Shown: positions 1,254 to 55,401 of the stretch, piece after piece | Layout of the letters: each line of letters opens with the position of its first letter | Position numbering within the stretch: the stretch's first letter is position 1 | Program-made: the position numbers and the translations under genes | NCBI GenBank assembly: GCA_003649205.1 | Contig: QMRC01000012.1 | Coordinates: forward strand, 1-55,614 | Direction: 5' to 3' | DNA: 55,614 nucleotides | Origin: Thermoprotei archaeon | GTDB lineage: Archaea > Thermoproteota > Thermoprotei > Thermoproteales > B15-G16 | Notes under the pieces: model-generated | The model's input: the letters and a program-made list of their open reading frames with translations, nothing else | Told to the model about the DNA's origin: nothing | Databases searched by the model: none

Positions 1254-1720
1254 GTGCTAAACAGTGAATAACATAGCGAACATCTTTCAAAGAGACTAAT
1301 GTCCCAATTACAAGTAAAAACTCTTTTAAGTGAGAATGCACCCTTAGAGCTCTCCATCGAACTACATTCTTGAATCCACTGCAATAGGTAGGCGAGAGGT
1401 ACTAGCCTAATTGTCCTACTAAGTACTAATGCAGATCGCAGATTCTAGCTGAATCGAATTCTGATACCTTATAGAGGGTGAAAATGAGAGTACCGACTAG
1501 AGTATTAGTTGTCTCCTCGAGTAGAGGTACGTAACTACCATAGATATTTAAGGTCGATCCCTACGGACTTCCTTACCTCATATCTGAGAAGTAGGTGAAG
1601 TGTTGGAGTTAATAGGAACTCACCACCAATACCTAGTACTGATGGGAGAGCCCATGATGATTTCTGATAATGGTAGTAGTGTGCATGCACAGTATCCATT
1701 AACCTTTTCCGAATCCAGTC

Positions 1721-3124: not shown

Positions 3125-3182
3125 CTCACTATGTACCTCTGGTCAGACCATAACGAAGTGGTGGTGACTTTAAAACTATACC

Positions 3183-3665
3183 CTAGACATAGTCGAGTAG
3201 TGATCTCACATCACTAACATCACTACTCTCCTTCAAGTGCTTAGATCTAGGTGGGTATCCTCTTGAGGAGGCAAATTCCTCAAGATATTTAATGACCTCG
3301 CGTTTAACCCCAATGAATATACCATCGACTTTACCTCCGACCACACATCCTCCTCTATAGTTTCTAGGTAAAATCTCACGAAGTTCTTCCGAGTATATTG
3401 ACATGTGAAGTTCTCTACTTGGGACTATGACCAGTACGTAATCCCTTGTTTGCGTACTGAGTATGGCCGGTAGTACCTCTCGATAACTAATACTGAGCAT
3501 CTTCTCTAGTTCTGGATACTCAACATCGATGTGTGTTACTCTAGCTAGTGAGTACCCCTTAACGTGGATGTAGAGGTCAGGCCTTATCGTTGAGATCTGT
3601 GCTCGTGACTTTATGACTACTTTATCACATCTAATGCTTACCTTCCCAGGTGCGGGACCTGTCAT
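3183..3665 (-). CDS. hypothetical protein
   Basis: 160-aa ORF, ATG start, downstream of the ECF operon on the same strand. Confidence 0.7.
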   Translation of the reverse strand: MTGPAPGKVSIRCDKVVIKSRAQISTIRPDLYIHVKGYSLARVTHIDVEYPELEKMLSISYREVLPAILSTQTRDYVLVIVPSRELHMSIYSEELREILPRNYRGGCVVGGKVDGIFIGVKREVIKYLEEFASSRGYPPRSKHLKESSDVSDVRSLLDYV

Positions 3666-7168: not shown

Positions 7169-7323
7169 GGTTTACGTACTTGATTCAATGTAATATAAAG
7201 CTTACCCTCAATAGAGTCCATACGTAATTTAATCGAATAAGTAAATGATTTGAGGTTAGAGATTTTAGACAGTAACTTAACACCTAGTCTAGCACCCCCA
7301 GGTAAGGGCTTGAGATGTAGTCT

Positions 7324-11141: not shown

Positions 11142-11938
11142 CCAAGAACACCCTCCATTACAAGAAGTGCTGTCATTCTAGAAATCTCATTTATTGCACC
11201 AAGCACATCCCCTGTAACATAGCCGAGGACCTTATGCGCAATACACACTATGAGGAGAGCTGTAAACCATGCGGTTGATATCAGGTATATCGAGTTCAGG
11301 ATGCCTACTAGGGGAAATGTCAATACGATACTCAGTACTAGTGAGGTCAGGAGCTTAATCATGCCTCGACTTCTCATGTATTCTATAAAGAGGTGGCCAG
11401 TACCTTCGGATAGAGATTTCCCGTGATAAGCACCTATGATTATGGAGAACTTAGCCATTACCTCAGATGCCGCTAAGAAGTGTGTTAGACCTTTAGACAT
11501 GAGATCAGCCATGACAATACCTGTTACAGTGAATACGAGTACCACCAAGGCAAGACCACCAACTCCTACTCGTTCGTCTCTCATAGCCTTCAGCTTCTTC
11601 TCAGCAGGACCTACACAGAGAAGAGCGTCTCCAAAGTCAGCAAGCCCATCTACATGGTAAAGGCCTGTTATCACGTAGATGAAGCCTAGCGTGAGAAAGC
11701 CCACTATTGTAGGGTTAAAGAACTTCAAGAGGCAGTACGCTATAATTGTAGCTGATGCACCTATGAGGAATCCTATCAGAGGTGATAAGTATGCGAACTT
11801 AGCTGCGTAGACTATGGTATCCTCATCCATGCCTAGGGGTATTGCGGTGAAGAATGATATGAGGCTCTTCAAGCCCTTTACCAGTTCACGTACTGACGCG
11901 AGTTTCCTAGATTTGTCCTCTTTTAAGGAGAAGTTCAT
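11138..11938 (-). CDS. cobS: adenosylcobinamide-GDP ribazoletransferase (cobalamin synthase)
   Basis: FFTAIP, TGLYHVDGLADFGD, AMRDERVG and GYVTGDVLGAINE. Confidence 0.95.
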   Translation of the reverse strand: MNFSLKEDKSRKLASVRELVKGLKSLISFFTAIPLGMDEDTIVYAAKFAYLSPLIGFLIGASATIIAYCLLKFFNPTIVGFLTLGFIYVITGLYHVDGLADFGDALLCVGPAEKKLKAMRDERVGVGGLALVVLVFTVTGIVMADLMSKGLTHFLAASEVMAKFSIIIGAYHGKSLSEGTGHLFIEYMRSRGMIKLLTSLVLSIVLTFPLVGILNSIYLISTAWFTALLIVCIAHKVLGYVTGDVLGAINEISRMTALLVMEGVLG

Positions 11939-23908: not shown

Positions 23909-23986
23909 TGGAGCCGGGGCCGGGATTCGAACCCGGGATTTACCGGGTCTGCAGCCCGGCGCCTTTGACCGCTCGGCCACCCCGGC
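23909..23986 (-). tRNA. tRNA-Cys(GCA), CCA encoded
   Basis: GCCGGGG acceptor stem, CCGGG-CTGCAGA-CCCGG anticodon arm, TTCGAAT T-loop and 3' TCCA. Confidence 0.98.
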
Positions 23987-39126: not shown

Positions 39127-40104
39127 GTGTACACTACTCACGTTGGTAGTTTTCCACTAGATTTCACTAGAGATAATGTATTGAGGGTTTTCCACGATAT
39201 GATCAATATAGGTATCGACTATCCACCCTATCCACAACTACGTAACTTCATAAAGATCTTCCTAGATCCACTAGTGGATATACATGTCCTAAAGTTGGTT
39301 AACAGTAAGTACGTGATCAACATATCGCTAAGTGAATTGAAGAACTTACCCCTACCTGCTGTAAGGCTTGAGGAAGCTGAAATAGTAGCTAGTATTGTGA
39401 AGAAGGAGAGGATATGTGTAGAAGCTATTCGAGGTTGCGTAACTGGGCCCTTTACCCTTGCTTCGGAAATTCAGATATCTGAAAGAGAGACACGAGGATT
39501 ATTCACATCTGCTTTAAGTAGTAAGGATTTCGTGCTCAAGTACATGACTAGAATTGTTAGGGAATTTGTCACGTATCTACATGATGTTCTTGGATTCAAG
39601 TTCATAGTAATTGATGAGCCAGTACTCTCAGTAATAGTTGGCTCGAGACGCATACTATTTGATTACACGATTGAGGAAATTAGTAAATGCCTTGATGAGG
39701 TTCTTCAGGGTGTAGAACTAGCTGGTGTACATGTCTGTGGTAGGGTACCTCCACTACTTAAGGACGTTCTACTGAGTACTCGGTACGTTAAAGTTCTCGA
39801 TCATGAGTTTAAGGACAATCCAAAGAATCTAACGGTCTACACTAAGGACGAACTGGAGAAGTATGATAAGTTCATCTCATTTGGTTGCGTATCATCGAGG
39901 AAACCAGTGATTGAGTCAGTAGAGGAGATAATGGACGTAGTTAAGAGAGGTATTGACACGTTTGGTAGTAGATTGCTGATGATTAAGCCAGATTGTGGTT
40001 TTAGGGGATTAGCTGGATTCTTTGAGAATAAGGAAAAAGCCTATGAGGTAGCTATTGAGAAGTTGAGGAGGATTGTTGAGGTAAAACGTAGATTACATGT
40101 ATAG
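39127..40104 (+). CDS. core (MesA-like) methionine synthase / methylcorrinoid:homocysteine methyltransferase
   Basis: Single MetE catalytic barrel with HVGSFP, VTGPFTL, IDEP and Zn ligands HVC, DHE, PDCG; no N-terminal folate domain. Confidence 0.85.
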   Translation: MYTTHVGSFPLDFTRDNVLRVFHDMINIGIDYPPYPQLRNFIKIFLDPLVDIHVLKLVNSKYVINISLSELKNLPLPAVRLEEAEIVASIVKKERICVEAIRGCVTGPFTLASEIQISERETRGLFTSALSSKDFVLKYMTRIVREFVTYLHDVLGFKFIVIDEPVLSVIVGSRRILFDYTIEEISKCLDEVLQGVELAGVHVCGRVPPLLKDVLLSTRYVKVLDHEFKDNPKNLTVYTKDELEKYDKFISFGCVSSRKPVIESVEEIMDVVKRGIDTFGSRLLMIKPDCGFRGLAGFFENKEKAYEVAIEKLRRIVEVKRRLHV

Positions 40105-40114
40105 GGGGTTTGCC

Positions 40115-40759
40115 ATGGAGGATCTAATCAATAAGCTTAAGGTAGCGATCATTGAGGGTGATGAGGAAGAAGCTCTGAAGGTAACTAAGGAATTGCTGGA
40201 GAGGGGTATAGATCCTAAATTAATTATTGAACGGGCATTGGAACCAGCTATGAAAATTGTAGGTGAGAAGTTTGAACGAGAAGAGTACTTCATACCTGAA
40301 GTCATGTTAGCAGCTGAGGTATTTAAGAAGGTTATGGAGTTTCTCAAACCTCATCTTGGTCAAGAGGTAGGTGAGAAGTCAAAGGGTAGAGTAGTGATAG
40401 GTACTGTTCGTGGTGATATACATGAGCTCGGTAAGAATCTTGTTGCTACAATGCTTTCAGTAGCTGGGTTTGAGGTTATAGATCTTGGTGTTGATGTGAG
40501 TCCAGAGAAATTCATTGAAGCAGTGGAGAAGTATAGACCTGATGTACTTGGTCTTAGCGCCTTAATGACTACGACAATGATTGAGCAGAAGGTAGTTATT
40601 GAGGAGTTGAAGAGGAGAGGATTAAGGGATAAAGTCAAGGTCATTGTTGGGGGAGCACCTGTTACAGAAGAATGGGCTAGAGAGATCGGTGCTGATGGTT
40701 ACGCTGCAAATGCGTACGAGGCTGTAAGATTAGTTAAGAAGTTGCTAGGTGTTGAGTAG
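40115..40759 (+). CDS. methyltransferase corrinoid protein (MttC/MtbC family)
   Basis: Cap domain, GDIHELGKN (DxHxxG), DLGVDV, GLSALMTTT and VGGAP. Confidence 0.96.
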   Translation: MEDLINKLKVAIIEGDEEEALKVTKELLERGIDPKLIIERALEPAMKIVGEKFEREEYFIPEVMLAAEVFKKVMEFLKPHLGQEVGEKSKGRVVIGTVRGDIHELGKNLVATMLSVAGFEVIDLGVDVSPEKFIEAVEKYRPDVLGLSALMTTTMIEQKVVIEELKRRGLRDKVKVIVGGAPVTEEWAREIGADGYAANAYEAVRLVKKLLGVE

Positions 40760-42202
40760 ATGCCAAGACCTACAATCTCGTTATTGAGTAAAAACGATAT
40801 TGAGCTAATACATGAGAAGGCGCTAGAGGTTCTCGAGGTAATTGGTGTCAGGATTGAGAGTAGAAGAGTTGTGAACCTACTTAAGAGCTACGGTCTTGAG
40901 GTTAGTGAGGGTAATGTAGTTAAGTTTCCAAGAGATCTAGTTGAGAGTAAAGTTAAGGATTGCCCACATGAATTCACACTCTATGATAGAGAAGGAAAGC
41001 CGAGATTATTGGTTGGAGGTGATAGAACTTACTTCAACCCAGGTTCAGCAGCTACGAAGATACTTGACTTGAGACAGAACACCATTAGGGATCCCACACT
41101 TTGGGATTTACGCGACATAGCTATCCTAGTTAATGAACTTGAGAACATTGATGCTCAGAGCACAGCTGTTGTACCTCATGAATTTCCACCAGAGACCCGA
41201 GATAGAGTTAGACTATATCCACTTCTGAAGTACTCGACTAAGCCTATAGTCACAGGAGCCTTTACGGTAGATGGTGTACACGACATGGTTAAGCTCTTAA
41301 GCATCTTCATCAGCGACCTCGATAAAAGACCAATAGCTATATTCGATGTTTGTCCATCACCACCCCTTAAGTGGAGTGAAGTCACTGTGGAGAATTTAGT
41401 TGATTGTGCTAAGTATGGACTACCTATAGAGATAATATCAATGCCATCTCTCGGCGCTACATCACCAGTGACAATTGCTGGTGCTCTAGTGCAGCACCAT
41501 GCTGAAGTACTTTCAGGTATAGTAATAGCTCAGTTAGTTAGAAAGGGTGTACCTGTTGTATATGGTGGATCACCTTCGACATTTGACATGAGGTATGGGA
41601 CACCGAACATAGTTGCTCCTGAAGCCCTTCTGGTGTCACTTGCATATGTTGAGATAGCAAAGTATCTGAACTTACTAACACACACGTACATGGCTTTAAG
41701 CGACACTATCTTACTCGACTATCAATCTGGTGTAGAGACAGGTATCAGCGCTCTTGTAGCTTGTTTAAGAGGAATAAACGTTGTCTCAGGTCCTGGTATG
41801 TTAGAGCACGAGAGTACTCAATGTCTTGAGAAGTTAGTTCTCGATAATGAGGTCTGTGGATTAGTTAGGAGGTTTAGTAGAGGATTCAACATCGGTATAG
41901 AGGAGTTAGCTATTGACTTACTAAGAGATGTAGGTCCTGGTGGTACATTTCTATCTAAGAAGCATACCGTTAAGCACTTTAAGAAGGAAATTTACCATCC
42001 TCACATACTATTAAGATATGACATGAGAGAATGGATGAGGAGAGGTAGTCCCTCACTCCTGGAGAGAGCTAAACAGGAAGTTGAGCAGTTGCTAAAGAGG
42101 GGCACTAGAGAGTTACCTCCATCGGACCTACTTCAGGAACTAAATAGAGCAATTAATGGAATACTTAGGAAATTCGGTATTACAGTAAGGGAACTCCCTT
42201 AA
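40760..42202 (+). CDS. non-pyrrolysine MttB-superfamily methyltransferase
   Basis: IHEKALEVLEVIG, SPPL, GATSPVTIAGAL, GVPVVYG, DYQSGVE, LVLDNE and VGPGGTFL; no in-frame amber codon. Confidence 0.93.
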   Translation: MPRPTISLLSKNDIELIHEKALEVLEVIGVRIESRRVVNLLKSYGLEVSEGNVVKFPRDLVESKVKDCPHEFTLYDREGKPRLLVGGDRTYFNPGSAATKILDLRQNTIRDPTLWDLRDIAILVNELENIDAQSTAVVPHEFPPETRDRVRLYPLLKYSTKPIVTGAFTVDGVHDMVKLLSIFISDLDKRPIAIFDVCPSPPLKWSEVTVENLVDCAKYGLPIEIISMPSLGATSPVTIAGALVQHHAEVLSGIVIAQLVRKGVPVVYGGSPSTFDMRYGTPNIVAPEALLVSLAYVEIAKYLNLLTHTYMALSDTILLDYQSGVETGISALVACLRGINVVSGPGMLEHESTQCLEKLVLDNEVCGLVRRFSRGFNIGIEELAIDLLRDVGPGGTFLSKKHTVKHFKKEIYHPHILLRYDMREWMRRGSPSLLERAKQEVEQLLKRGTRELPPSDLLQELNRAINGILRKFGITVRELP

Positions 42203-43774: not shown

Positions 43775-43962
43775 CCTCAAGCTCACTCCACAACACTCCA
43801 CTACCTAGTATGATACGTAGCATCTCTATAGGTTAAGTAAATTGAAAGCGATGTGAGGAGTTAGAGGTGAAAGTATCTGCAGCGTGACTGTGGATTAGAG
43901 AGCATTTTCAGAAAAGAAAGTACATACACAGTACGTAGAGCATTTAACAGCACTTAGTGAGG

Positions 43963-45126
43963 TTAACTTAGAAGTAGCAGAGCGTATGAAATGAAGAACA
44001 AATAGGAAAGTAGAGTAGAAGGACCAATGTACTTATACACACGTACAACATCGGCATTATAGTACTTCACACTATAGACTAGACATAGATGTACTGGAGA
44101 TGGTACATAGCCAAAGAAACTGGAGTTAAATATTAATACAGCATCCTTGAATGAGCTAGCAGTTAAGACAGATGCTGAAACAGTAATAGAAAAAGTTTGA
44201 GACCCCGTTACCAAGCTAAGTACATAGGGTACAAGCAATAGCAATACATCACGGGGAAGGTGCTTGCTAAGTCCACTAATCACCGTATAAGCACTAGTCA
44301 TCTTAACTGAGAAACTAAGTAGTATGACAGCGAAGCTGGCTAGTGTTGTAGACCAAACCCTTTTACTACTCAAAACCTTACGTAGTATAGTGGAGCTTGG
44401 TCTGTATGTGAATACTATGAACACGATACTAGCTATGACACCAATACCAATAGAAAAACCACTCACTAGGGGTCTAGTAGCTAGAGCTATTACCAGAGGA
44501 ATTAAGAGGGTAAGGAGTGACGTATATTTCGGTCTAACTCTAACCAAATGAACTACCTCGAGTTTTCTAACCCCAATTACATAGCCAACAGCAACAGTAA
44601 GGAGCATCAAGGGGGTATTGAATAAAGCTATAGAAAAGGAATCGGCACCACTTAGTGACGAAATCAAGATCATGGAGTTGGTAATCGGATAGGCAAGAAA
44701 TATCGTGTGCCTAAACCACACGTTAATGTAGGCCTTCATCACCGAATTACAGAGTGAAAGAGCATCAACCAATGGAGCGGACAGTAGAGCACCACCAGCA
44801 ACTGGTAGAAGACCTAGTACAGCAGGTAATAACATAATAGCCACCTTAGGCCTCATAATCGAGACTACTGTCTGCGCAACTTCGTTGTCAATTCCCAAGT
44901 TATGAAACAATTCAGCTAAAATACATATACTAGCTGTAGCAGAGAAAACAATCCAGAAAGTCTCGCTCAGTAACGTGGTCAAGATTACTTTAGGAAGTAG
45001 AAGAGGATTTGTCAGCAGGACTAACGTTATAGCTCCTGCAAGCAGGCATAGACTAATATCGAGTTTCATGTACATTAGCAGTAGCATTAACGCTATAGAT
45101 ATCAGCAATGAAGCAGCTGAGTACAT
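43963..45126 (-). CDS. DUF401-family membrane protein
   Basis: PAVLGLLPVAGGALLSAP, NVWFRH and SPVHLCL. Confidence 0.85.
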   Translation of the reverse strand: MYSAASLLISIALMLLLMYMKLDISLCLLAGAITLVLLTNPLLLPKVILTTLLSETFWIVFSATASICILAELFHNLGIDNEVAQTVVSIMRPKVAIMLLPAVLGLLPVAGGALLSAPLVDALSLCNSVMKAYINVWFRHTIFLAYPITNSMILISSLSGADSFSIALFNTPLMLLTVAVGYVIGVRKLEVVHLVRVRPKYTSLLTLLIPLVIALATRPLVSGFSIGIGVIASIVFIVFTYRPSSTILRKVLSSKRVWSTTLASFAVILLSFSVKMTSAYTVISGLSKHLPRDVLLLLVPYVLSLVTGSQTFSITVSASVLTASSFKDAVLIFNSSFFGYVPSPVHLCLVYSVKYYNADVVRVYKYIGPSTLLSYLFFISYALLLLS

Positions 45127-45427
45127 GGGAGAGTGTTACACTCAATGAGAATATATGGTTTTTCGCCTCTGAACCTACTTCAAAAATCAAGACATCACGA
45201 TAGAGGAGGTGAACTTCAGCATTGAAGGTAGAGAGTACCTTGAGCTAATCTAGGTGAGAAGCCTTTTGGGCATATAGGTATGTAGATGGAAATTGAAGAT
45301 TTATCGTCTAGATTACGAACTACAGTGATTGAAGCAGATGAAAATCTAGGTAACCATAGTCACACATAGAGGAGTAAACCTATAATCTCTAATATCCAAA
45401 AACGAGAGGTAAGTAGCAACTAAGACG

Positions 45428-46291
45428 GTGGTAGTGATGGAGTTTGGAGTAGCTACAATGGTGTACTACCCAGGTTCAACACCTAGAAGAGCCATACTCG
45501 ACTCACAGAGCTTTGGTTTCAGGTACCTTGAGATAAGTTACGAGCACTTCATCAAGTACATAGAGAACAACGACCTAATGAGGGTAAAGGAGCTACAGAA
45601 ATCCATAGTGGAAGTACTTGAGACAACACAGCTAAAGGTACTTCAAGTACATGCACCATACGGTAAGGTGAACTACTACATGGTTGCAGATGATGTGGGA
45701 TTAAGGAAGTACGCTACTACACTGATGGAGATGTGGATTGAGTTCTGTAGAGAGGTGGACTGTAGAACCCTAGTAACCCACACAGGATGGGCACCACCAC
45801 GAGTCACAGTACCATACCACAAACATATAGAGATAATGTTGAGGAAGAACATAGAGTTCTATAGGGAACTGAGTAAGGTAGCTAAGGATAAAGGAGTTGA
45901 AATAGCAATTGAAAATAGATTGGAAAGAGTCTTCGGTATAACACCAAAGGACATAGCAGCAATAGTGAGTGAAGTAGGTAGTGAAGTACTTGGACTCTGC
46001 CTAGACGTAGGTCATGCACACATAAACAAGCTACCAATACCAGAGATACTGCAGAGGTACGGTAGCATCCTAAAGGCAACACACATACATGATAACAACG
46101 GTGAAGTAGATCAGCACCTACCACCATACATGGGATCAATAGACTGGAAAACCATCATCAAAGCATTCAAGAACATAAACTACAGTAGACCACTAATATT
46201 CGAGGTAGCAGGGGATCGAGTAGAGGAAATATGTAGGAATAGACTGTACCTACTATCAAAGATCAGGGACATACTAGCAGAAGAGACATGA
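45428..46291 (+). CDS. sugar phosphate isomerase/epimerase (xylose-isomerase-like TIM barrel)
   Basis: HAPY, IAIEN, LDVGH, HIHDN, HLPP and IFE. Confidence 0.9.
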   Translation: MVVMEFGVATMVYYPGSTPRRAILDSQSFGFRYLEISYEHFIKYIENNDLMRVKELQKSIVEVLETTQLKVLQVHAPYGKVNYYMVADDVGLRKYATTLMEMWIEFCREVDCRTLVTHTGWAPPRVTVPYHKHIEIMLRKNIEFYRELSKVAKDKGVEIAIENRLERVFGITPKDIAAIVSEVGSEVLGLCLDVGHAHINKLPIPEILQRYGSILKATHIHDNNGEVDQHLPPYMGSIDWKTIIKAFKNINYSRPLIFEVAGDRVEEICRNRLYLLSKIRDILAEET

Positions 46292-47433
46292 GTAGATACA
46301 CACTAACGATAAAACCCAGTACACACATCAGCACACTCTGCTACTCAGTACTAAGGATAGAACCATACGCAACCTGCGAATACAGCTGCGCGTACTGTTA
46401 CGGGAAGTGGTATAGAGTAGAGACAGAGAACAAACCACTCAAATCACTAATCAACGAATTCAGGAACCTAGTCAAGGTACTGACCAGGAGAAACCTAAAG
46501 ACAATACCCTTCAGACTATCAACCCTCGTAGATCCACTACAACCAATTGAGCAAGAGCACAGACTCAGTAGGTACATAATGAAGCTATGTCTGAGATACG
46601 ATGTACCACTCATCATATGCACAAAGTCAACACTCATACTAGAGAGACCCTGGATAGAATTAGTTACGAAGCTAAGCTCAAGACAGCTAGCAATCGTACA
46701 GATCACCTTAACAACACTAAGAGACGAAGTGGCTAAGGTACTAGAGCCAAGAGCACCAAAACCAGAGGACAGATTGAAGGTCGTAGAGAAGCTAAGTAGT
46801 GAAGGAGTACCTGTAGTAGCTAGGTACCAACCACTGATACCAGGTGTAGTAGAGGATGAGTACATCGAGATGATACAGCAGCTCAAGTACGCAGGAGCAA
46901 AACAAGTAGTCGTTGAGTCACTGAGGCTAACACTAGGAGAAATCAACAACCTAAGCAAGGTAATTCCAGAGCTAAGGAAAGTGGAGTGGGAACCATACAC
47001 ACCACAGCAACCACAGGTAACTAGACCGCACATAGGCTGGAGAAGGTACGTAGTGAGCAAGATAGCAGAGACGTGTAGGAAGTACGGACTAGAATTCAGC
47101 ACCTGTAAGGAAGGATTTCTCGAACTATGCACAGCAGAGAACTGCTGTGGAATGCACTACCTAGATCCAGAGAAGTACGTACTAAGACCAACACTACACG
47201 AAGTATGGAGAAAGTGGTTAATCAGAGGAAAAGTACCAACACCACAGGAACTAACTCAAGAACACGAACAAGATCCAAAGTACATCTGCGGAAATAAACT
47301 CATGAACTACCCAAGACAACTCAGAAGAGCACTGAAACAACACGAGAAAACACTAGTGAAGGTACTAGAGAAGGAAAACCTACTCAAGCACGTACTCGGA
47401 ATAGAGGAAACACCAAAGAAAGCCAAGACATAG
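46288..47433 (+). CDS. radical SAM protein (spore-photoproduct-lyase-like)
   Basis: EPYATCEYSCAYCY, DPLQPIE, CTKS and LEPRAP...R. Confidence 0.9.
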   Translation: MSRYTLTIKPSTHISTLCYSVLRIEPYATCEYSCAYCYGKWYRVETENKPLKSLINEFRNLVKVLTRRNLKTIPFRLSTLVDPLQPIEQEHRLSRYIMKLCLRYDVPLIICTKSTLILERPWIELVTKLSSRQLAIVQITLTTLRDEVAKVLEPRAPKPEDRLKVVEKLSSEGVPVVARYQPLIPGVVEDEYIEMIQQLKYAGAKQVVVESLRLTLGEINNLSKVIPELRKVEWEPYTPQQPQVTRPHIGWRRYVVSKIAETCRKYGLEFSTCKEGFLELCTAENCCGMHYLDPEKYVLRPTLHEVWRKWLIRGKVPTPQELTQEHEQDPKYICGNKLMNYPRQLRRALKQHEKTLVKVLEKENLLKHVLGIEETPKKAKT

Positions 47434-47442
47434 TAGACATAG

Positions 47443-47982
47443 GTGAAGAACTTGCTGAGAGGACTCTTCATAGGTAGATTCCAACCATTCCACAACGGAC
47501 ATCTACATGCAGTAAAACACATACTAAGCGAAGTAGATGAGGTAGTCATCGCAGTAGCATCAGCACAGTACAACTACACCATAGACAACCCATTCACAGC
47601 AGGAGAGAGAATAGAGATGATAAAGCTAGCACTAGGACCACTCTACAACAGAACCTACGTAATACCAGTCGACAACATACCAAACAACTACACATGGCCA
47701 AGACACGTACTAAACTACGTACCTAGAGTACACGTAGTCTACACAAACAACGAATTCGTAGCAAAACTCTTCAAAGACTACGGACTAGAGACAAGACCAG
47801 TACCACACCTAGAAGGAGTAAGCGGAACACTCATAAGGAAACTCATCGTAGAGGACAAACCCTGGAAACACCTAGTACCAGAACCAGTAGCAAAGTACAT
47901 CGAGGAAATAGGAGGAGTAGAGAGAATAAAGCTAGTACACAGAATGAGAGTAGTAGCAGAGGGCGAGAGACATGGAAGGTAG
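47443..47982 (+). CDS. nadM: nicotinamide-nucleotide adenylyltransferase
   Basis: GRFQPFHNGH, NPFTAGER and SGTLIR. Confidence 0.95.
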   Translation: MKNLLRGLFIGRFQPFHNGHLHAVKHILSEVDEVVIAVASAQYNYTIDNPFTAGERIEMIKLALGPLYNRTYVIPVDNIPNNYTWPRHVLNYVPRVHVVYTNNEFVAKLFKDYGLETRPVPHLEGVSGTLIRKLIVEDKPWKHLVPEPVAKYIEEIGGVERIKLVHRMRVVAEGERHGR

Positions 47983-48757
47983 GAAGTACACAGCAGCAGT
48001 AGTGACAATAGGAACCGAACTACTGAGAGGACTCATAGAGAACACAAACGCAACATGGCTCTGCAAACAACTAACAGACCTAGGAATAGAGGTAAAGAGA
48101 GTAGTCACAGTACCAGACGACATGAACGAAATAGTCGAGACAATAAGGGAACTACTCAGGAAAGTAGATATCATAGTAACAACAGGAGGACTAGGATTCA
48201 CGAGAGACGACATAACAGTAGAGGCAATAGCAGAAGCAATACAGCAACCACTACACCACAGACGAGACATAGAGCAAATGGTACTAACTAGGTGTAGAGA
48301 ACTAAACTACGAGATAACACAGGAAGCACTCGTGAAAGTATCGAGAGCACCACCAACAGCACAACCACTACCAAACAACACAGGAATCGTACCAGGACTA
48401 CACATAGAACACCAAGGAAAACACATCTACGTACTACCAGGAGTACCAAGAGAAATGAAGCAAATATTCCAAGACCACGTAAAACCACACCTACAACAAC
48501 TCACAGAAACAAAACACACCATAGAGCTGATAGTACACACGAGACACAGAACCGAGATCGAGGTAGAGAACAAGCTCAAGAACATAGACATGAGCAGGTA
48601 CCACGTAACCTACATCAAGATCCACCCAAGACAACCAGTACAGATATCCATAACACTACAGCACACAGACAAACAAGAACTAATGAAGAAAGTACAGGAA
48701 CTACAGCAAGAACTAGGTAAGGTACTCAACATAGAGAAGATAGAGATCAAGACCTAG
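47972..48757 (+). CDS. cinA: CinA-like protein (molybdopterin-binding-type domain, no PncC domain)
   Basis: IGTELL.G...NTN, VPDD, TTGGLG.T.DDIT and LPGVPREM. Confidence 0.88.
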   Translation: MEGRKYTAAVVTIGTELLRGLIENTNATWLCKQLTDLGIEVKRVVTVPDDMNEIVETIRELLRKVDIIVTTGGLGFTRDDITVEAIAEAIQQPLHHRRDIEQMVLTRCRELNYEITQEALVKVSRAPPTAQPLPNNTGIVPGLHIEHQGKHIYVLPGVPREMKQIFQDHVKPHLQQLTETKHTIELIVHTRHRTEIEVENKLKNIDMSRYHVTYIKIHPRQPVQISITLQHTDKQELMKKVQELQQELGKVLNIEKIEIKT

Positions 48758-48777
48758 AGGAGGAAAGGGTAAGGAAG

Positions 48778-49563
48778 ATGACGACAACCATAGAGCTACC
48801 GAAGAAACTAGTAGAGAAACTAAAGGAGAGAGGACTAGACCCAACAACACACATCGTAGACACCCTAGTACGAGAACTAGAGCTAGATCCAGTAGAGGAA
48901 GCAGAGACAAGAATAGAACTCGCAGAGAAATACCTAGAAGAAGCGAGGAAATACATCGAGAGAGGCGACGCAGTACAAGCAAGCGAGAAAATGTACAAAG
49001 TAGTCGAGGAATGCATAAAGGCACTAGCACACATGCACAAACTACCTGAGTACGAAAAAGCAGTGAAAGAAGGAAGATGGTGGACACAACTACTAGGAAA
49101 AGCAGCTAGAAAACTAGCTAAACTACTCAACGAACCAAGAATTGAATCAACATGGTCAATCGCCTACGACATACACGTATGGGGATTCCACGAAGCAAAG
49201 TACACAGTAGAAGACATAGCACAAGACATACAGCACATAGAGTGGCTACTCAACCACACAAAGAAACAAATCAAAACAACAACCAAACACCAATCAAACA
49301 ACAACTCAATTAAGAAACAAAGAGAGCAGAAACAACAAAGAGCAGAGAGGGAAAACCCACATGACACTAGTGAGAGCAAGAGTAGAGATACACGGAACAA
49401 AGAAGCAAGTAACAGCAACAGCACTAGTAGGTACAGGAGCAACACTAACACTCATAGACAGAGAAGTAGCAGACGAGATAGGAGTCAAGTACACAGGAAG
49501 AAAAATCAAACTAGTAGTAGCAGACGGACACGAACTACCCAGCGAACTAGCTATAGTGGATAA
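48778..49563 (+). CDS. PaREP1-family protein (domain ends near residue 165; low-complexity tail)
   Basis: GDAVQASEKMYK, GRWWT and HVWGFHE. Confidence 0.85.
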   Translation: MTTTIELPKKLVEKLKERGLDPTTHIVDTLVRELELDPVEEAETRIELAEKYLEEARKYIERGDAVQASEKMYKVVEECIKALAHMHKLPEYEKAVKEGRWWTQLLGKAARKLAKLLNEPRIESTWSIAYDIHVWGFHEAKYTVEDIAQDIQHIEWLLNHTKKQIKTTTKHQSNNNSIKKQREQKQQRAERENPHDTSESKSRDTRNKEASNSNSTSRYRSNTNTHRQRSSRRDRSQVHRKKNQTSSSRRTRTTQRTSYSG

Positions 49564-49759
49564 GGTGGTAATCGAAGGAGAAGAACTACCACAAGCACAC
49601 ATAGCAGTAACAGAATTCCCACAGAAACTAAGACAAAGACTAGAGACACTACAGCTATGTACATGGTGCATCATAGGAGCAACAACACTAGAGACACTGG
49701 AACTAACACCAAACCCAAAAACAGGAAAACTAGAGAAAACACAAGCACTACTACTCTAA
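49361..49759 (+). CDS. clan AA aspartic-protease-like protein, catalytic DTG present as GTG
   Basis: ALVGTGATLTLID..VADEIG, ADG and IIGATTLE. Confidence 0.8.
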   Translation: MTLVRARVEIHGTKKQVTATALVGTGATLTLIDREVADEIGVKYTGRKIKLVVADGHELPSELAIVDKVVIEGEELPQAHIAVTEFPQKLRQRLETLQLCTWCIIGATTLETLELTPNPKTGKLEKTQALLL

Positions 49760-49811
49760 ACAAGACGAAAAACACATAACACCCCCACACAACCACGTGA
49801 AACGAGAACAA

Positions 49812-49912
49812 CCCCCGGTAGCTCAGCCTGGCAGAGCGGCCGGCTGTAGTGGGGTAGGAAAGAACAACCCGCAGCAACCGGCAGGCCGGGGGTTCAAATC
49901 CCCCCCGGGGGA
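49812..49912 (+). tRNA. tRNA-Tyr(GTA) with a 27-nt intron at 37/38 (49850-49876)
   Basis: CCCCCGG/CCGGGGG acceptor with C1-G72 and A73, GCCGG-CTGTAG|ACCGGC anticodon arm. BHB motif: CTGT/GCAG helix with AGT and CAA bulges. CCA not encoded. Confidence 0.97.
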
Positions 49913-49988
49913 TCATTTACTCATTTCTTCTTCACCAATTTTGGTGGGTTTTTCACATGATTCTTTGGTTCTGAGGTTTTGATTGGGG

Positions 49989-50032
49989 ATCTTATATACT
50001 ACTTAGCTTAGTTCTATCTCGGTGAATTCTCT
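49989..50032 (+). promoter_or_regulatory. TATA box and RBS, duplicated at 50599-50642
   Basis: ATCTTATATACT...GGTGAAT(T/C)CTCT-GTGCCTAT occurs twice, exactly 610 bp apart. Confidence 0.8.
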
Positions 50033-50464
50033 GTGCCTATCATCATAAGGTTACCGATCAAGGTTAAGGAAATTAAACCTATTACTGTTAGCTTTGTTGC
50101 TGAGGTTCCTTACTTAGTCCCTGGTGAGTTGAGGGTTCCGGAGGATGTTTTGAAGAGGTTTAGGGATTTTGGTGTTCCTGATGGGTATCCTGTTCAGGTT
50201 TGTGTAGCGCCGTTGGAGTATGTTATTGAGAAAGAGGGTGGTGTGAATCTAGAGAGACCTGAGGTTTTTGGGTTGCCAGTAGCTGCTGTTGTGTATTTTC
50301 GGTATGGTAGGGGTATTTGGTTGAGTGAGTACTTTTGGGATTTCTTTAGTGCTAACTTCAGGAAGTATGTAGGTCACCTTAAGAAGGGTGATCCTGTAAA
50401 AGTGAGAGTAGTGATACATACAGCACTATTCATAGTTGATGAGGATGTGAGGAAGACAGCTTGA
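50033..50464 (+). CDS. hypothetical protein, tandem paralog 1 (AbrB-like motifs)
   Basis: Collinear with and highly similar to 50643..51080; own promoter and RBS. Confidence 0.85.
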   Translation: MPIIIRLPIKVKEIKPITVSFVAEVPYLVPGELRVPEDVLKRFRDFGVPDGYPVQVCVAPLEYVIEKEGGVNLERPEVFGLPVAAVVYFRYGRGIWLSEYFWDFFSANFRKYVGHLKKGDPVKVRVVIHTALFIVDEDVRKTA

Positions 50465-50642
50465 AGGGAAAGTAAGAGATCTTGAGTTGATGCTTCATTT
50501 AGCTATGTTATCCTGATCTCAGGTGTACTCTGTATCCTTGTTAGTTGGTACTGTAGATTACTCTGTGTAGTCTACACATGCTCTTCATTGTATCAGGAAT
50601 CTTATATACTGGCTTGCCTCTCCTCTTGTTGGTGAATCCTCT

Positions 50643-51080
50643 GTGCCTATTGTCATTAAGCTTCCAGTTGAGGTTAAGGAGATTAGGCCTATTACGGTTT
50701 GCTTCATAGCTGAAGTACCTTATATGATGCCTACTGAGGTTAAGATACCGAATGAAGTACTTAAAAAGCTGAGGGAGAGTGGTCTGCCCGACGGGTATCC
50801 TGTTAGTATTTGTGTTGCACCGCTCAAGTATGTTGAGGAGAAGGAGGGGTGTGTGAGGCTTGAGGATCCGGAGGTCTTTGGTTTGCCTGTAGCTGCTATC
50901 GTGTACTTTCGGTATGACAGAGGTATTCGTTTAAGCGAACTTTTCTGGGACCTCTTTGCTGCTGGTTATAGGAAATACCTCGAGGGTTTGAAGAAGGGGG
51001 ATCCTGTAAAGGTGCGTATCGTCATTCATGCTGCACTATTCGTTATTGAGAGAGAAAAAAGTAATGTGGAAAAGAGTTAG
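50643..51080 (+). CDS. hypothetical protein, tandem paralog 2 (AbrB-like motifs)
   Basis: Shares PDGYPV, VAPL.YV.EKEG, PEVFGLPVAA.VYFRY and LKKGDPVKVR with paralog 1. Confidence 0.85.
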   Translation: MPIVIKLPVEVKEIRPITVCFIAEVPYMMPTEVKIPNEVLKKLRESGLPDGYPVSICVAPLKYVEEKEGCVRLEDPEVFGLPVAAIVYFRYDRGIRLSELFWDLFAAGYRKYLEGLKKGDPVKVRIVIHAALFVIEREKSNVEKS

Positions 51081-51109
51081 AGCACCTTCTGAGGCTTAGC
51101 AACGCCTTA

Positions 51110-53239
51110 TCAGAGGTGTTTGATACCATAATCAAATACCGCAACATAGACCATTATGCCGTTAACTGTCCTTTCAGCACTAGTCAACACTACCGATATG
51201 TACATGATGTAATCAGCCCCTATGCCTATTGCATGCTCTTTAGCTTCCCTAATACACATCTTCCTCAACGATTCAAGGACGCTAGGAGCCTCTTCATAGC
51301 TTGCAAACCGAATCTTTGTCTCAACAACCGCTACTACCTTTCCCTTCTCAGACAATATTATAAAGTCAGGCTTGCCCGGCTGCCCGAGCATTTCAATCGT
51401 GAAGTCCTTGAGCTTAAGTGCTTCTGATATGTACCTACGCAGTACTCGGTGATGTAGTAGCTTCTGTGCTATGTACTCTCCAATGTAGCCTTTACTTCGT
51501 GAATCTAATGTAAGGTATGTAAACAGCAAGTTAGGTTTCACAAAGATCCCTATGTATCCTTCAGACTCCATGACTATCAGGTTCTTCTCCACTAGTTGTT
51601 TTGCTTTTGCTCTTGGTATGGTTTCGTATATTTGCTTTAGTTCTGGTAGCTTGAAGTACCTCGTGTATGGTCTTTGTGGTTCGTGGAATCTTATGTAGTA
51701 CCCTATGACTTGTTCTCTCTCGTTTCTTACTGGTATGATGTCTAGTATTTTCCAGGCTTTTACTACTCCTTCTGCTTTTGTTACTATGTTCCAGTGTAGG
51801 TTGTTTGGTTGGAGGACTAGGTGTAGTTCTAGGTCTCCTCTCTTGAATACGATGTATGGTGATCTGTAGCCTGCGTACTGTGGTCTTAGTTCTCCTTGGA
51901 TGGTGGTGGTTCCTGGTAGTTTGAGTACTGGTTTCTCGTCTATGACATCTATCTCGAGTACTTGTCTTAGCTTTGGTTCTATGGTGTTTATCCACCTATC
52001 TAGTACTTGTTTGAGGGTTGTCTGTTCGAGGACTATACCTATCCACTGTCCTGTGTACTTCTTGAGGTGTAGCTTGATCTTGTCTACCTTGGTTAGGTAT
52101 CTTAGCTGTATTTCCTGTACTCCCCATTCGTTGATTAGTTTTAGGGTATAGAGCCCTGGTTTCTGTACCATGTACTTGCTGAAGGTCTTTGGTATTGCTA
52201 CTGTTCCTGTCTTTGGTACCTTGGCTACGTATCCTCTTCCTGTGCTGAGTGTTCTTACCCAGGTCTCGATTAGTGTTGTTACTTCGTGTCTTGGTGTTGT
52301 CTTGAGTTGTGTCCTTATGTACTGTATGATCTCTGGGTCATCTCGGTAGAGTTTCTTTACTAGTTCTCTCAGTTGTCTTAGGTAGGTGTTTGCTATGTGG
52401 TGTGTTGTTGGGTAGAGTTTTCCTAGTGCTCTGATTGCTACCTCTATGAGTGCTGTTGCTAGGAGTTGTGCTGCTGCTCTCTCCTTTACTTCCTTTGGTA
52501 CGTCTGGTCGTACTATGGCTGCTGCTAGTGTTCCTAAGGTTCCTGGGTATGTTTCGGTTAGTGCTGTTAGTGGGTCGTATCCTCTAAGTACGTCGTCTAT
52601 GGCTTTGGGTATTCCGAGGTTCACTATATTGCCTATGTGGTAGAGTAGTGCTATGGTGTGGATGAGTACTGGTGTGTCTAGTCCTGTTGCTTCTCTTATC
52701 CTCTCTAAGCTATCTCGGTAGTCCTGTACGAGGTATGCTGGTGATTCTCTGTATACCTCTATGACTTGTCTAAGTACGTTACCTATGTCTACGGTGCTTA
52801 CCTGTACTCTGTAGCTCTTAGGTACTTTGCTTCCGTTGATCTCTATCGGTATGGTTAGGGTTATGGTGTTGTTGCTTATCTCTACCTTGGTTTGGTTTAG
52901 TAGGTATGTTACGTTTCCTACGGTGATGTAGTTTCCTATCTCTGTGATTGCTTTTGTGAGGTTTCCTGTTTCTAGGTACTTATCGAGTACGTTGCTGCAC
53001 CTAGTTACTCTTAGTCCTGGGTACTTGATTGCTAGGTATGTTGTTGAGAGTGCTAGTCCGATGATGAGTATTCCTAGGAATTTCCTTAGTGCTCTGTCAC
53101 TTACTACGTACCTACCTAGGAGGAACCACATGAGTATGGTTGCTAGTGGTAGTGGTGACTTCACGAGTAATCCGGCTATTGCTGATGCTATTGTTACTAG
53201 GATTAGTAGTATCCTGAGGATTTTGGTTACTGGGGTCAC
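51110..53239 (-). CDS. membrane-anchored protein with C-terminal PD-(D/E)XK nuclease domain
   Basis: Three N-terminal hydrophobic helices; C-terminal KGYIGE..A...KPDFII...VVAVVETK. Confidence 0.75.
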   Translation of the reverse strand: MTPVTKILRILLILVTIASAIAGLLVKSPLPLATILMWFLLGRYVVSDRALRKFLGILIIGLALSTTYLAIKYPGLRVTRCSNVLDKYLETGNLTKAITEIGNYITVGNVTYLLNQTKVEISNNTITLTIPIEINGSKVPKSYRVQVSTVDIGNVLRQVIEVYRESPAYLVQDYRDSLERIREATGLDTPVLIHTIALLYHIGNIVNLGIPKAIDDVLRGYDPLTALTETYPGTLGTLAAAIVRPDVPKEVKERAAAQLLATALIEVAIRALGKLYPTTHHIANTYLRQLRELVKKLYRDDPEIIQYIRTQLKTTPRHEVTTLIETWVRTLSTGRGYVAKVPKTGTVAIPKTFSKYMVQKPGLYTLKLINEWGVQEIQLRYLTKVDKIKLHLKKYTGQWIGIVLEQTTLKQVLDRWINTIEPKLRQVLEIDVIDEKPVLKLPGTTTIQGELRPQYAGYRSPYIVFKRGDLELHLVLQPNNLHWNIVTKAEGVVKAWKILDIIPVRNEREQVIGYYIRFHEPQRPYTRYFKLPELKQIYETIPRAKAKQLVEKNLIVMESEGYIGIFVKPNLLFTYLTLDSRSKGYIGEYIAQKLLHHRVLRRYISEALKLKDFTIEMLGQPGKPDFIILSEKGKVVAVVETKIRFASYEEAPSVLESLRKMCIREAKEHAIGIGADYIMYISVVLTSAERTVNGIMVYVAVFDYGIKHL

Positions 53240-53428
53240 GTGGGGGCCCTTTCTCTAGTTGATCAGAATCGATTATAGTCTCGTAGAGTGTTGGTTATGT
53301 GATTTCATAGAGCTACGTTACTGTACTGTACTACTGATTGATCTAGTGTGTTCCTGTGTTCGGTTGAGTCTGTGTTGGTGTAGGTATGTTATTTAGCTCC
53401 CTCTGTACTGTGGTTTATTGGGTGGGTT

Positions 53429-53956
53429 TTGTTGGGTTGTATTGTTTGGGTTCCTAGGAGGATTGTTAAGGAGATTGAGAGGAGGGGTTTGTGTGTTGAG
53501 GATGTTTTAGTTGAAGTTCTTGCTGAGAAGTTTAATCTTGATTCTCAGAGTGTTGCTGAGGTTCGTCTTGAGCTTGCTGAGAAGTACTTGGAGGAAGCTA
53601 GGAGCTATGTTGAGAAGGGTGATGCTGTTCAAGCAAGTGAGAAGTTGTATAAGGTTGTTGAGGAGTGTGTGAAGGCTCTTGCTGAACTCCTTAACCTTCC
53701 TGAGGTTGAGAAGGCTAAGAGGTTAGGGAGGTGGTTTACTTGGCTTCTTGGTAGTGCTTCTTCGAGGGCTTCTAAGGTGCTTGGTGAGCCGAGGATTGAG
53801 TTTGTCTGGGGTATTGCGTATGACCTACATGTCTGGGGTTTTCATGAGGTGAAGTACGGTATTGATGTTGTTGAGATGAGATTTCCTCATATTGAGTGGC
53901 TTCTACGGTACACTAAGGAGAAGGTGAAGGAGCTTTCGAAGGGTTCTCAGAGGTAG
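53429..53956 (+). CDS. PaREP1-family protein
   Basis: GDAVQASEKLYK, GRWFT and LHVWGFHE. Confidence 0.9.
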   Translation: MLGCIVWVPRRIVKEIERRGLCVEDVLVEVLAEKFNLDSQSVAEVRLELAEKYLEEARSYVEKGDAVQASEKLYKVVEECVKALAELLNLPEVEKAKRLGRWFTWLLGSASSRASKVLGEPRIEFVWGIAYDLHVWGFHEVKYGIDVVEMRFPHIEWLLRYTKEKVKELSKGSQR

Positions 53957-54017
53957 CTTAGTGTGTTTAGCTACCTTAATTTACCTGTTAACTCATTTAC
54001 TGATTGAGGTGGGAAGA

Positions 54018-54518
54018 GTGGAGTTCACTGTTATTGAGGTTCCTGATGTTGTTTATGAGGTCCTTGCTCGAAAGGCTAAGTACTTGGGTAGGACGGTAGT
54101 AGATGTGATTGTGGACTCTGTAATCTCTAATCTCGATCCTGAATCCAGAGTTGAGGTGTACCTCAAACTCCATGATAAGTACCTTAGCGATGCTGAGGAT
54201 CTGTATAGGAGAGGTGACCTTACTCAAGCTAGTGAGAAGTACTGGGGTGCTGTCTACGCTATCTTGAGTGCTATTGCCGAGTCGGGAGGGTTGCCACATT
54301 TTAGACATGGTCATTTTGAGGAATTGATTGAGTTACTTAGTGAGGAGCTTAATGACCGTGAGTTACCTAAGCTCTTCGCTAGTGCTGAGAGACTTCACGC
54401 AAATTTCTACCATGGTTTTCTCAGGAAGTTTGGATTTGAGATTCATCGTGAAGACGTGCTTAAGCTAGTTGAGAAGCTTCGTAATTACCTAACTGAGCTT
54501 AGGAGTACTCGGTGCTAG
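54018..54518 (+). CDS. PaREP1-family protein with RHH-like N-terminus
   Basis: VIEVPDVVYEVL, GDLTQASEKYWGA and AERLHANFYH; GAGGTG RBS precedes GTG 54018. Confidence 0.9.
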   Translation: MEFTVIEVPDVVYEVLARKAKYLGRTVVDVIVDSVISNLDPESRVEVYLKLHDKYLSDAEDLYRRGDLTQASEKYWGAVYAILSAIAESGGLPHFRHGHFEELIELLSEELNDRELPKLFASAERLHANFYHGFLRKFGFEIHREDVLKLVEKLRNYLTELRSTRC

Positions 54519-54567
54519 GTCTACTAGGTACCTCATTCTCAACTCTAGATGTGTGGGGTAACTTAAA

Positions 54568-55401
54568 ATGAAGGACAGATCATCTATGAATGTCATTGAT
54601 AGGCTCAAGAAGGTTTTCATCAAGTATCCTCAGGTTCTCCTAGCGTATCTCTACGGTAGCTATGCTAGGGGTTGTCCTAGTCCATTAAGTGATGTCGATA
54701 TAGCTATCTTGACTAGTGATCGTGGTGTAGTGCTTGATCTCGTAGCTGATGTAGCTAGAGAACTTGGTATACCTGAGAGTCAGGTATCGATTACTGACTT
54801 GGAGCTTATGGATCCTCTAATTAGGTTGAAGATACTTCGTGAAGGTGTTGAACTTGTTAATAGGGGTGTTGATACTCGATCACTTCTCCCTCGTGATCAG
54901 TCCTATGTCGAGGTCTATGAACTTGAGGAGAGGTCGAGTTCTCTAAGTTGGTTGAGAGGTGATCCTATAGATATTGTCTTGATTAGGGATGTAGTTGCTA
55001 GAATTCATGAGGATGTTCGTGATCTAGAGGAGTTACTTAGCTTTGGTTTTGAGAGGGTTATTGGTGATAAGCATTTGAGGAAGTCCTTTGAGAGAACGAT
55101 GCAGACTCTCATAGAGTCTATGGTGGATCTACTGAGACATATCGTAGCTGGGTTGAATCTGGGTGTAGCGATGTACTACAGGGACTACGTTGATTTTGCT
55201 GTTAAGGGGGGTGTCATCTCTAGTGATGTAGCTGAGCAACTACGGAGATTCATACCGATTAGACATGCACTAGTACACAGGTACCGTAGTCTGGATTACG
55301 AGAAGTTATGGGGTGAAGCTCCTAAACTAGTACAGTTAGCTAATCAACTAGTTAGTGAAGTTAGGGAATTCCTGAAGAGGAGATTGGGGCTCAAGGTATA
55401 G
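54568..55401 (+). CDS. fused MNT (MntA) nucleotidyltransferase and HEPN (HepT/DUF86) RNase
   Basis: YLYGSYARG...SDVDIA; ERTMQ..IES..D; RHALVHRY (Rx4H). Confidence 0.9.
   Translation: MKDRSSMNVIDRLKKVFIKYPQVLLAYLYGSYARGCPSPLSDVDIAILTSDRGVVLDLVADVARELGIPESQVSITDLELMDPLIRLKILREGVELVNRGVDTRSLLPRDQSYVEVYELEERSSSLSWLRGDPIDIVLIRDVVARIHEDVRDLEELLSFGFERVIGDKHLRKSFERTMQTLIESMVDLLRHIVAGLNLGVAMYYRDYVDFAVKGGVISSDVAEQLRRFIPIRHALVHRYRSLDYEKLWGEAPKLVQLANQLVSEVREFLKRRLGLKV

Follow-up and report, generated by a model that had tools for sequence, protein, structure and literature searches.

A local strand-composition inversion of about 8 kb centred on a tRNA-Tyr gene in a Thermoprotei archaeon

Strand asymmetry of base composition is normally weak and chromosome-wide. 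Here we describe a locus of about 8 kb around an intron-containing tRNA-Tyr gene, on contig QMRC01000012.1 of a Thermoprotei archaeon, in which such asymmetry takes an extreme and local form, and we compare it with the described systems that it most resembles. Throughout, the window means the whole stretch of DNA analysed, which is 55,614 nt long, contains no ambiguous bases and has a GC content of 0.39–0.46 in 1-kb windows. According to passages of Xia (2012, PMC3269012), vertebrate mitochondrial DNA has a G/T-rich H strand and an A/C-rich L strand, and the difference is explained there by A and C being deaminated on the strand that is left single-stranded. As in the mitochondrial case outlined in those passages, the bias of the present locus towards G/T on one strand and A/C on the other dictates codon usage whatever the orientation of the genes; unlike it, the archaeal bias is bidirectional and mirror-symmetric, is confined to ~4 kb on either side of a point in a cellular chromosome, and has T rather than G as its main sink. 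The locus also resembles the skew at bacterial and archaeal replication origins, since the sign changes at a point, with origin polarity and independently of gene orientation. Ordinary origin skews, however, are much weaker and span whole replichores, whereas this one is local and the features of an origin were not found in the window; archaeal origins, in the parts of PMC4010727 that describe them, carry origin recognition boxes (ORBs), an AT-rich unwinding region and usually an adjacent cdc6 or whiP gene.

Two further comparisons concern processes that damage or expose one strand. In break-induced replication, long single-stranded nascent DNA is a known damage target (portions of PMC9262586), and strand-coordinated mutation clusters of yeast and tumours, as presented in portions of PMC9262586 and PMC6786661, reflect kilobase-scale damage to single-stranded DNA (ssDNA); the nascent-strand polarity of break-induced replication fits the present locus. 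Those clusters are single somatic events, whereas the archaeal bias would reflect a recurrent process at a fixed site that has come to evolutionary equilibrium. With transcription-associated asymmetry the locus shares the chemical axis, G/T enrichment of the non-template strand, but the coding-strand bias is opposite in 7 of the 11 protein genes of the domain. In the literature searched we found no description of local skew islands in archaea, which does not prove their absence, and within that literature an asymmetry that is near the maximum permitted by the genetic code, local, and symmetric around a point defined at base-pair scale is new.

The AT skew of the + strand in 1-kb windows was +0.36 to +0.57 at 46–50 kb and −0.21 to −0.49 at 50–54 kb, compared with −0.17 to +0.23 in the other 1-kb windows of the sequence. 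It rose from ~+0.2 at 43.5 kb to +0.60 at 48.5–49.5 kb, reversed its sign within ~100 bases and then remained at −0.2 to −0.52 up to ~54 kb; 500-base windows outside the feature stayed within ~±0.26. GC content across 46–54 kb was 0.43–0.44 in 1-kb windows, unchanged against the near-constant background of the window. As a control, AT skew was calculated in 1-kb windows with 500-base steps for 80 archaeal loci, which were among the matches listed from a genome-contig scan and yielded 2262 windows. A threshold of |AT skew| ≥ 0.45 was reached here in 7 of 110 windows, all of them at 47–53 kb, and in only 1 of the 2262 control windows, this sole exception being an effect of gene orientation. The exceptional locus (L049, positions 250–3250, from a Methanosarcinales metagenome-assembled genome), in which AT skew is −0.46 and then +0.49, exemplifies skew driven by orientation: it is due to two divergent genes, each with a T-rich coding strand.

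The switch point was located by three-state hidden Markov model (HMM) segmentation and by cumulative walks. Segmentation placed it at 49915/49916 and the walks reached their minima at 49898 and 49906, so the composition switch (49898–49916) coincides with the 3′ end of the tRNA-Tyr gene, on which the preliminary description of this DNA had already centred the inversion. The gene carries the anticodon GUA, read by eye from the sequence, and an intron of ~27–30 nt after position 37, because of which it is overlooked by ARAGORN; the other tRNA gene of the window, tRNA-Cys at 23909–23986, is found by ARAGORN, and its flanks are unbiased. The arms on the two sides of the switch are nearly the same in length (3.9 kb on the left and 4.15 kb on the right by segmentation), and both are strongest beside the junction and weaker outwards. 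In 500-base bins of fourfold-degenerate sites, each arm consists of a ~4-kb plateau and then a shoulder of 0.5–1.5 kb, a profile in which saturation would mask a gradient.

The spot counts given in the preliminary description were reproduced (A/C at 53 of 60 bases in 49261–49320, G/T at 50 of 60 bases in 53401–53460), and the two 21-mers that it quoted were placed at 48922 and 53576. Its choice of A/C versus G/T as the axis of the inversion needs to be qualified: both the amino and the keto class do shift, but the inversion runs mainly between A and T, the change in GC skew is smaller, and left-arm C barely exceeds background. The overall + strand composition is A 42%, C 22%, G 22% and T 14% in the left arm (46016–49915).

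The bias follows position and not gene orientation, as had been claimed at the outset. At fourfold-degenerate sites, always expressed on the + strand, G+T amounted to 10% in + genes of the left arm, 92% in a + gene of the right arm and 94% in part of a minus-strand gene of the right arm, compared with 45–50% in background genes (1029/2054 for + genes, 1604/3586 for − genes; Fisher test, p from 7e-14 to 2e-65 for the contrasts), and A and T exchanged places almost fully. The minus-strand gene, at 51110–53239, had been said to follow position; this is true of 51581–53239, but the patch at 51110–51580 is unbiased. Codons ending in T are nearly gone from the left arm (AAT 1 versus AAC 32, TAT 1 versus TAC 39, ATT in 3 of 83 Ile codons and CTT at a count of 0), and AAA accounts for 44 of 89 Lys codons there versus 40 of 226 in background + genes, while the codon shift in + genes of the right arm is the reverse of that in left-arm genes. 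At twofold sites, which allow transitions only, the shift was 2- to 8-fold relative to background by arithmetic from the codon counts. Two PaREP1 genes, at 48778 and 53429 and both on the + strand, do use opposite synonymous codons, although the description of these paralogues as close does not suit a protein identity of 54%; only 24 of the 88 identical residues are encoded with the same third base, the mismatches being A/T (25), A/G (19) and C/T (15).

The spacers behave in the same way. T makes up 3–5% of the two spacers left of the tRNA and 41–47% of the right spacers (49913–50032, 120 bases, T 47% and A 17%; 53240–53428, T 41% and A 15%), and G+T is 0.37–0.62 in 18 background spacers. Since spacers obey the same rule as fourfold sites, codon-level selection is not the cause. 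Selection on the sequence in a broader sense, whether for nucleic acid (DNA or RNA) free of secondary structure or for certain codons, might draw on the fact that A/C-only and G/T-rich strands are unable to self-pair and that the flanks fold no better than shuffles (no hairpins above chance in the single-stranded flanks; z = −0.37 and −0.77). This explanation is nevertheless barely credible, given the same bias in spacers and fourfold sites and the opposite bias in paralogues on the same strand; we also know of no function that requires 8 kb of such sequence. Gene orientation or amino-acid content as the cause was rejected by the fourfold sites, codon tables, paralogues and spacers together.

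The left arm contains five + genes plus the end of a sixth, whose products were assigned by Pfam and NCBIfam as a sugar-epimerase-like TIM barrel protein, a radical SAM protein, an NMN adenylyltransferase (NMNAT), a CinA/MoCF protein, a PaREP1 protein and a small aspartic protease. Among the 80 loci listed, the adjacency of NMNAT and CinA is common to two only (L001 and L002), both without bias (maximum |AT skew| 0.19); the closest relative among the matches listed has 65% protein identity. The unchanged GC content, together with NMNAT–CinA synteny in unbiased relatives, implies that the segment is native. Third-position T amounts to 3% in NMNAT and 1% in CinA here versus 20–32% in the L001 and L002 orthologues, while first-position T is reduced and second-position T is the same. 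Protein identity of NMNAT is 60% to L002 and 56% to L003, with 64% between L002 and L003, which points to only a modest rise in protein divergence. Selection preserved the proteins while the free sites went to saturation. The nearest relatives of NMNAT are Desulfurococcaceae-like, with identities of ≤ 68%, and the host is an undescribed, probably hyperthermophilic member of the Thermoprotei. In L002 (Thermogladius sp. 4427co), the CinA orthologue is immediately followed, on the other strand, by an intron-containing tRNA (11285–11394, − strand); this tRNA is a tRNA-Met/Ile with the anticodon CAU, and its surroundings are without compositional bias.

The native character of the left arm bears on the idea of a historical artefact, in which the segment would be foreign DNA that was already biased, a recent inversion with its breakpoint at the tRNA, or an assembly chimera. 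tRNA 3′ ends serve as integration sites, and both the location of the switch and the orphan and accessory genes of the right flank would suit such an origin. The left arm, however, consists of vertically inherited, syntenic core genes with unchanged GC content, the arms peak at the junction and fade, unlike an inverted uniform block or a chance join, and the tRNA is intact, with no integrase and no second tRNA 3′ half in the window, so that we consider an artefact highly improbable. Protein families were assigned by a Pfam scan of the 57 open reading frames (ORFs) of the window, plus NCBIfam and PHROG, and no integrase family was found in the window by any of the three. The 36-base 3′ part of tRNA-Tyr occurs once in the window with ≤ 3 mismatches allowed, though the far end of an element could lie outside, and the 709-aa product of the minus-strand gene and the product of the first gene after the tRNA (p1) have no match in phage or archaeal-virus records or PHROGs. 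An element integrated at the tRNA was rejected for want of an integrase or att repeat in the window. The effect is position-dependent and mutational, and does not arise from gene orientation, codon selection or foreign DNA.

The two arms are mirror images when their fourfold sites are read on the strand whose 5′→3′ direction leads away from the tRNA. Frequencies on this strand are A.029, C.035, G.208 and T.728 in the right arm and A.037, C.066, G.132 and T.765 in the left arm; pooled over both arms (827 fourfold sites), this strand, which would be the damaged one, has A.034, C.053, G.163 and T.750. The amino bases A and C are depleted and the keto bases T and G enriched, and such a loss of amino bases on one strand has the spectrum of single-strand deamination. 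Deamination is far faster in single-stranded than in double-stranded DNA. We used a toy equilibrium model. Its background was strand-symmetric, with G→T as the main transversion, and only A→G and C→T were raised, on one strand; an extra rate of ~20× the background A→G rate gave A.03, C.03, G.17 and T.77. Under a plausible background of this kind, an asymmetry of the deamination type would be sufficient, and direct A→T change, for example after depurination, possibly contributes. In the plateaus T or A is down to only ~1–8% in 500-base bins, which, if genes of the right arm arrived at different times (see below), would imply that the pressure is active or has only recently ended.

The explanation that we favour, tentatively and at somewhat under an even chance, is a native zone of ~8 kb that is recurrently single-stranded because DNA synthesis is initiated or resumed at the tRNA-Tyr 3′ end and proceeds outward while synthesis of the other strand is delayed. 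The outward-running strand (5′→3′ from the tRNA) would be repeatedly single-stranded at a high growth temperature, and hydrolytic deamination of this exposed strand would convert A to hypoxanthine, read as G, and C to uracil, read as T, possibly along with depurination. DNA synthesis would begin or restart at or beside the tRNA in both directions and would advance for ~4 kb before the complementary strand is made. It could take the form of an initiation or restart zone with uncoupled strand synthesis, of a strand-displacement or D-loop-type bubble, or of a restart resembling break-induced replication. Candidates for the damaged strand would be the lagging-strand template of departing forks, the strand displaced from a nick or D-loop, the nascent leading strand, or, with outward transcription, the non-template strand; the lagging-strand template of forks that converge on the tRNA is not one of them. 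The origin-like polarity first reported for the locus fits outward synthesis that damages any of the lagging-strand template, a displaced strand or the nascent leading strand, and this polarity by itself does not distinguish between an origin, divergent transcription, strand displacement from a nick and restart at a fork barrier. The best reading is localised, recurrent single-strandedness with origin-like polarity but not a canonical origin, with the mechanism offered as a proposal. In its boldest version, which we hold to be doubtful, the locus would be an undescribed start site of DNA synthesis at a tRNA 3′ end, free of ORBs and Orc1, from which uncoupled synthesis in the manner of mitochondria or a D-loop would run ~4 kb outward on each side, with the displaced strands deaminated by heat and all genes of the zone recoded; to our knowledge, displacement replication is not known in archaeal chromosomes. 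Resection in the 5′→3′ direction from a break at the tRNA was rejected, as it predicts the opposite polarity: in both arms it is the strand heading for the tRNA that is A/C-rich and undamaged.

Outward transcription would leave the G/T richness on its non-template strand, so polarity also fits divergent transcription with R-loops, in which read-through from the tRNA and from promoters of p1 and its neighbour p2 would run rightwards, strong antisense transcription would run leftwards and the non-template strand would be exposed. Counting the tRNA, 6 of the 7 genes of the right arm are oriented rightwards, and TATA-like elements (repeat D9) lie upstream of p1 and p2. On the other hand, all six left-arm genes run towards the tRNA and have an A/C-rich coding strand, opposite to transcription-associated asymmetry, as has the 553-codon biased part of the 709-codon minus-strand gene; the model therefore requires antisense transcription to prevail across 4 kb of core genes. 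Moreover, the arms match in length and do not follow transcription-unit boundaries, and the flanks of tRNA-Cys are unbiased. Transcription is for these reasons an unlikely cause.

A conventional chromosomal origin dependent on Orc1/Cdc6 or WhiP, with ordinary leading/lagging skew, would likewise give a top strand that turns from A/C-rich to G/T-rich, and the right flank is a region of accessory genes beside a tRNA; capture of origins from extrachromosomal elements has been proposed for Aeropyrum and Sulfolobus in the part of Wu (2014, PMC4010727) that deals with it. The window, however, shows none of the hallmarks of such an origin. Beyond low-complexity matches and a gene duplication of 610 bases, no ORB-like repeats were present within ~650–800 bases of the switch, and the ORB core TCCANNGGAAAC had 2 one-mismatch matches, none near the site, with 3.05 expected by chance; ORBs vary between lineages and divergent boxes could escape this search. 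No AT-rich unwinding element stood out, the highest AT content of an 80-base segment near the switch being 0.65 (49921–50000) versus a window maximum of 0.72 (7171–7250). Neither orc1/cdc6, whiP nor MCM was among the 57 ORFs scanned in the 55.6-kb window, which reaches only 5.7 kb to the right of the site, and an initiator gene could lie beyond 55.6 kb. Replichore-scale skew is also missing, as the bias is lost ~4 kb out, the other 45 kb show none and the genes at 1–43 kb are without consistent fourfold strand bias, and the magnitude at the locus is far above that of any of the 2262 control windows. We regard a conventional origin as improbable. Of the original proposal, an origin or another site of persistent ssDNA exposure, the wider ssDNA alternative survives and the ordinary origin does not, its hallmarks being absent and the bias ending ~4 kb out.

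The position of the switch, exactly at the end of a tRNA gene that is expected to be highly transcribed, would also suit a two-sided fork barrier or termination point, at which the leading-strand template would be exposed behind arrested forks; strand geometry gives origin-like polarity if it is the leading template that is exposed. Exposure of the leading template over kilobases is not established behaviour, nothing similar is seen at tRNA-Cys, and the sequence holds no sign of a barrier, so this account, too, is improbable.

Several points weigh against recurrent single-strandedness with outward synthesis as well. The data show the bias itself, its mutational nature, its switch point and mirror symmetry, that it does not depend on gene orientation and that a deamination-type asymmetry would suffice for it; we infer the single-stranded state, high temperature as its driver, outward DNA synthesis as its source and initiation at this site. 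The missing hallmarks of an origin (ORB-like repeats, an AT-rich element and an initiator gene in the window) count here too. The unbiased flanks of tRNA-Cys show that more than a tRNA gene is required for the bias. When all transversions are equal, the toy model yields G ~ T and fails to fit. Polarised non-synonymous changes in NMNAT and CinA (G→A 19 versus A→G 15; T lost 12 versus gained 9) appear, from these counts, to be weakly directional. The hyperthermophily of the host is deduced from the Desulfurococcales-like affinity of one protein. Finally, the unbiased patch at 51110–51580 and two moderately biased genes of the right arm need extra assumptions, such as recent arrival.

If recurrent single-strandedness is true, the sequence itself marks the site, strand and extent of DNA exposure in an uncultured hyperthermophile and offers a way into non-canonical initiation or restart in archaea. 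The locus also serves as a natural test of the mutation pressure that core enzymes can withstand, with synonymous sites saturated and proteins conserved. Genes newly arrived in the zone could be dated by their drift towards the local composition, and a genome-wide scan for islands of this kind could cheaply locate such sites in metagenomes. The coordinates of the features are collected in Table 1.

Table 1. Coordinates and composition of features in and around the biased zone (fourfold counts refer to the + strand)
Feature	Position	Strand	Evidence or composition
Left shoulder, bias fading	43900-46015		Fourfold + strand A/T 44/32%, then 58/20%
A-rich block	46016-49915		HMM segmentation
Five + genes of left arm	46288-49759	+	Fourfold n = 485: A 371, C 64, G 32, T 18; G+T 50/485 = 10%
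NMN adenylyltransferase (NMNAT)	47443-47982	+	Pfam, NCBIfam; within left plateau
CinA/MoCF-domain protein	47972-48757	+	Pfam, NCBIfam; within left plateau
PaREP1 gene, A-rich coding strand	48778-49270	+	Pfam PF05942, E 3e-36; fourfold A 77%, T 4%
tRNA-Tyr, intron-containing	49812-49912	+	Rfam RF00005, 55.1 bits, full model 1-71; intact
T-rich block	49916-50353		HMM segmentation
p1	50033-50464	+	Fourfold G+T 49/61, moderate bias
Neutral block	50354-51579		HMM segmentation
p2	50643-51080	+	Fourfold G+T 48/63, moderate bias
Unbiased patch, last 156 codons of 709-codon ORF	51110-51580	-	Fourfold G+T 32/66, p 0.62 versus background
T-rich block	51580-54070		HMM segmentation
N-terminal 553 codons of 709-codon ORF, orphan	51581-53239	-	Own coding strand A-rich like left-arm genes; fourfold n = 269: A 7, C 9, G 61, T 192; G+T 253/269 = 94%
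PaREP1 gene, T/G-rich coding strand	53429-53956	+	Pfam PF05942, E 2e-35; paralogue of 48778 gene; fourfold n = 73: A 3, C 3, G 10, T 57; G+T 67/73 = 92%
Right shoulder, bias fading	54071-55401		Fourfold + strand T/A 55/14%, then 52/21%

The right arm is uneven. Its first part, which is T/G-rich on the + strand, contains the 120-base spacer and most of p1, and its second part has a + strand composition of A 17%, C 17%, G 27% and T 40%; between them it is broken by a weakly biased to unbiased patch (50354–51579). The genes p1 and p2 are tandem paralogues that arose as the 610-base duplication and are 67% identical, and their family has 5 representatives in 1.84 billion proteins, self included; one member, 536 aa long, contains nine stretches that match. 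The AlphaFold2 (AF2) model of p1 has a pLDDT of 88. A fold search of PDB and BFVD returned nothing at E 0.001 or better, and a profile search of PDB sequences found nothing related. The top PDB rows of the fold search were Y-family DNA polymerases (E 0.05–0.4, TM ~0.2), which is not significant and is mentioned as a curiosity, not as evidence.

The minus-strand 709-codon ORF combines two parts of different character. Its last 156 codons form a NERD-like module of the restriction-endonuclease fold (Pfam NERD, E 0.029, sub-threshold), to which a separate 156-aa protein (P0127) is 61% identical over 152 residues, with its first residue aligned with the patch boundary. The 553-codon part is without a homologue: the 709-aa protein matches only itself among 5.8 billion proteins, the 553-codon part has no Pfam, NCBIfam, PHROG, PDB or phage match, and the 709-aa protein in Atlas gives weak leads (0.77) to restriction-endonuclease-fold families. 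The ORF resembles two genes read through, with hydrophobic segments at the N-terminus of the 553-codon part, an internal ATG at 51571 and out-of-frame TGA and TAG just before it. We infer from such differences that the right flank assembled accessory genes with differing residence times, of which the NERD-like gene would be the newest arrival, now read through from the upstream gene; if its lack of bias reflects recent arrival, the biased state would predate that arrival.

The left PaREP1 ORF extends to 49563, ~97 codons beyond the stop of its paralogue, as a low-complexity tail rich in K, Q, T, N, S and R that runs, in another frame, into the start of the protease gene (49361); the stop codon may have been lost under T-depleting pressure, or the extension may be genuine. 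The right shoulder carries a second PaREP1 gene and an NTase–HepT fusion (Pfam). In the latter, at 54568–55401, one ORF joins an MntA-like nucleotidyltransferase to a HepT-like RNase, which are normally encoded by two separate genes of a type VII toxin–antitoxin pair.

Two observations concern the remainder of the window. Segmentation also flagged a short, mildly T-rich stretch at 362–866 (A 20%, T 36%), which is far weaker than the main feature and spans the end of one + ORF and the start of the next (528–1253). The region 39127–42202, where GC skew is unusually high (+0.44 at 40–41 kb), encodes a Meth_synt_2-like protein, a B12-binding corrinoid protein and an MttB-family methyltransferase, a cluster that suggests a methyl-transfer system in a Thermoprotei-like genome.

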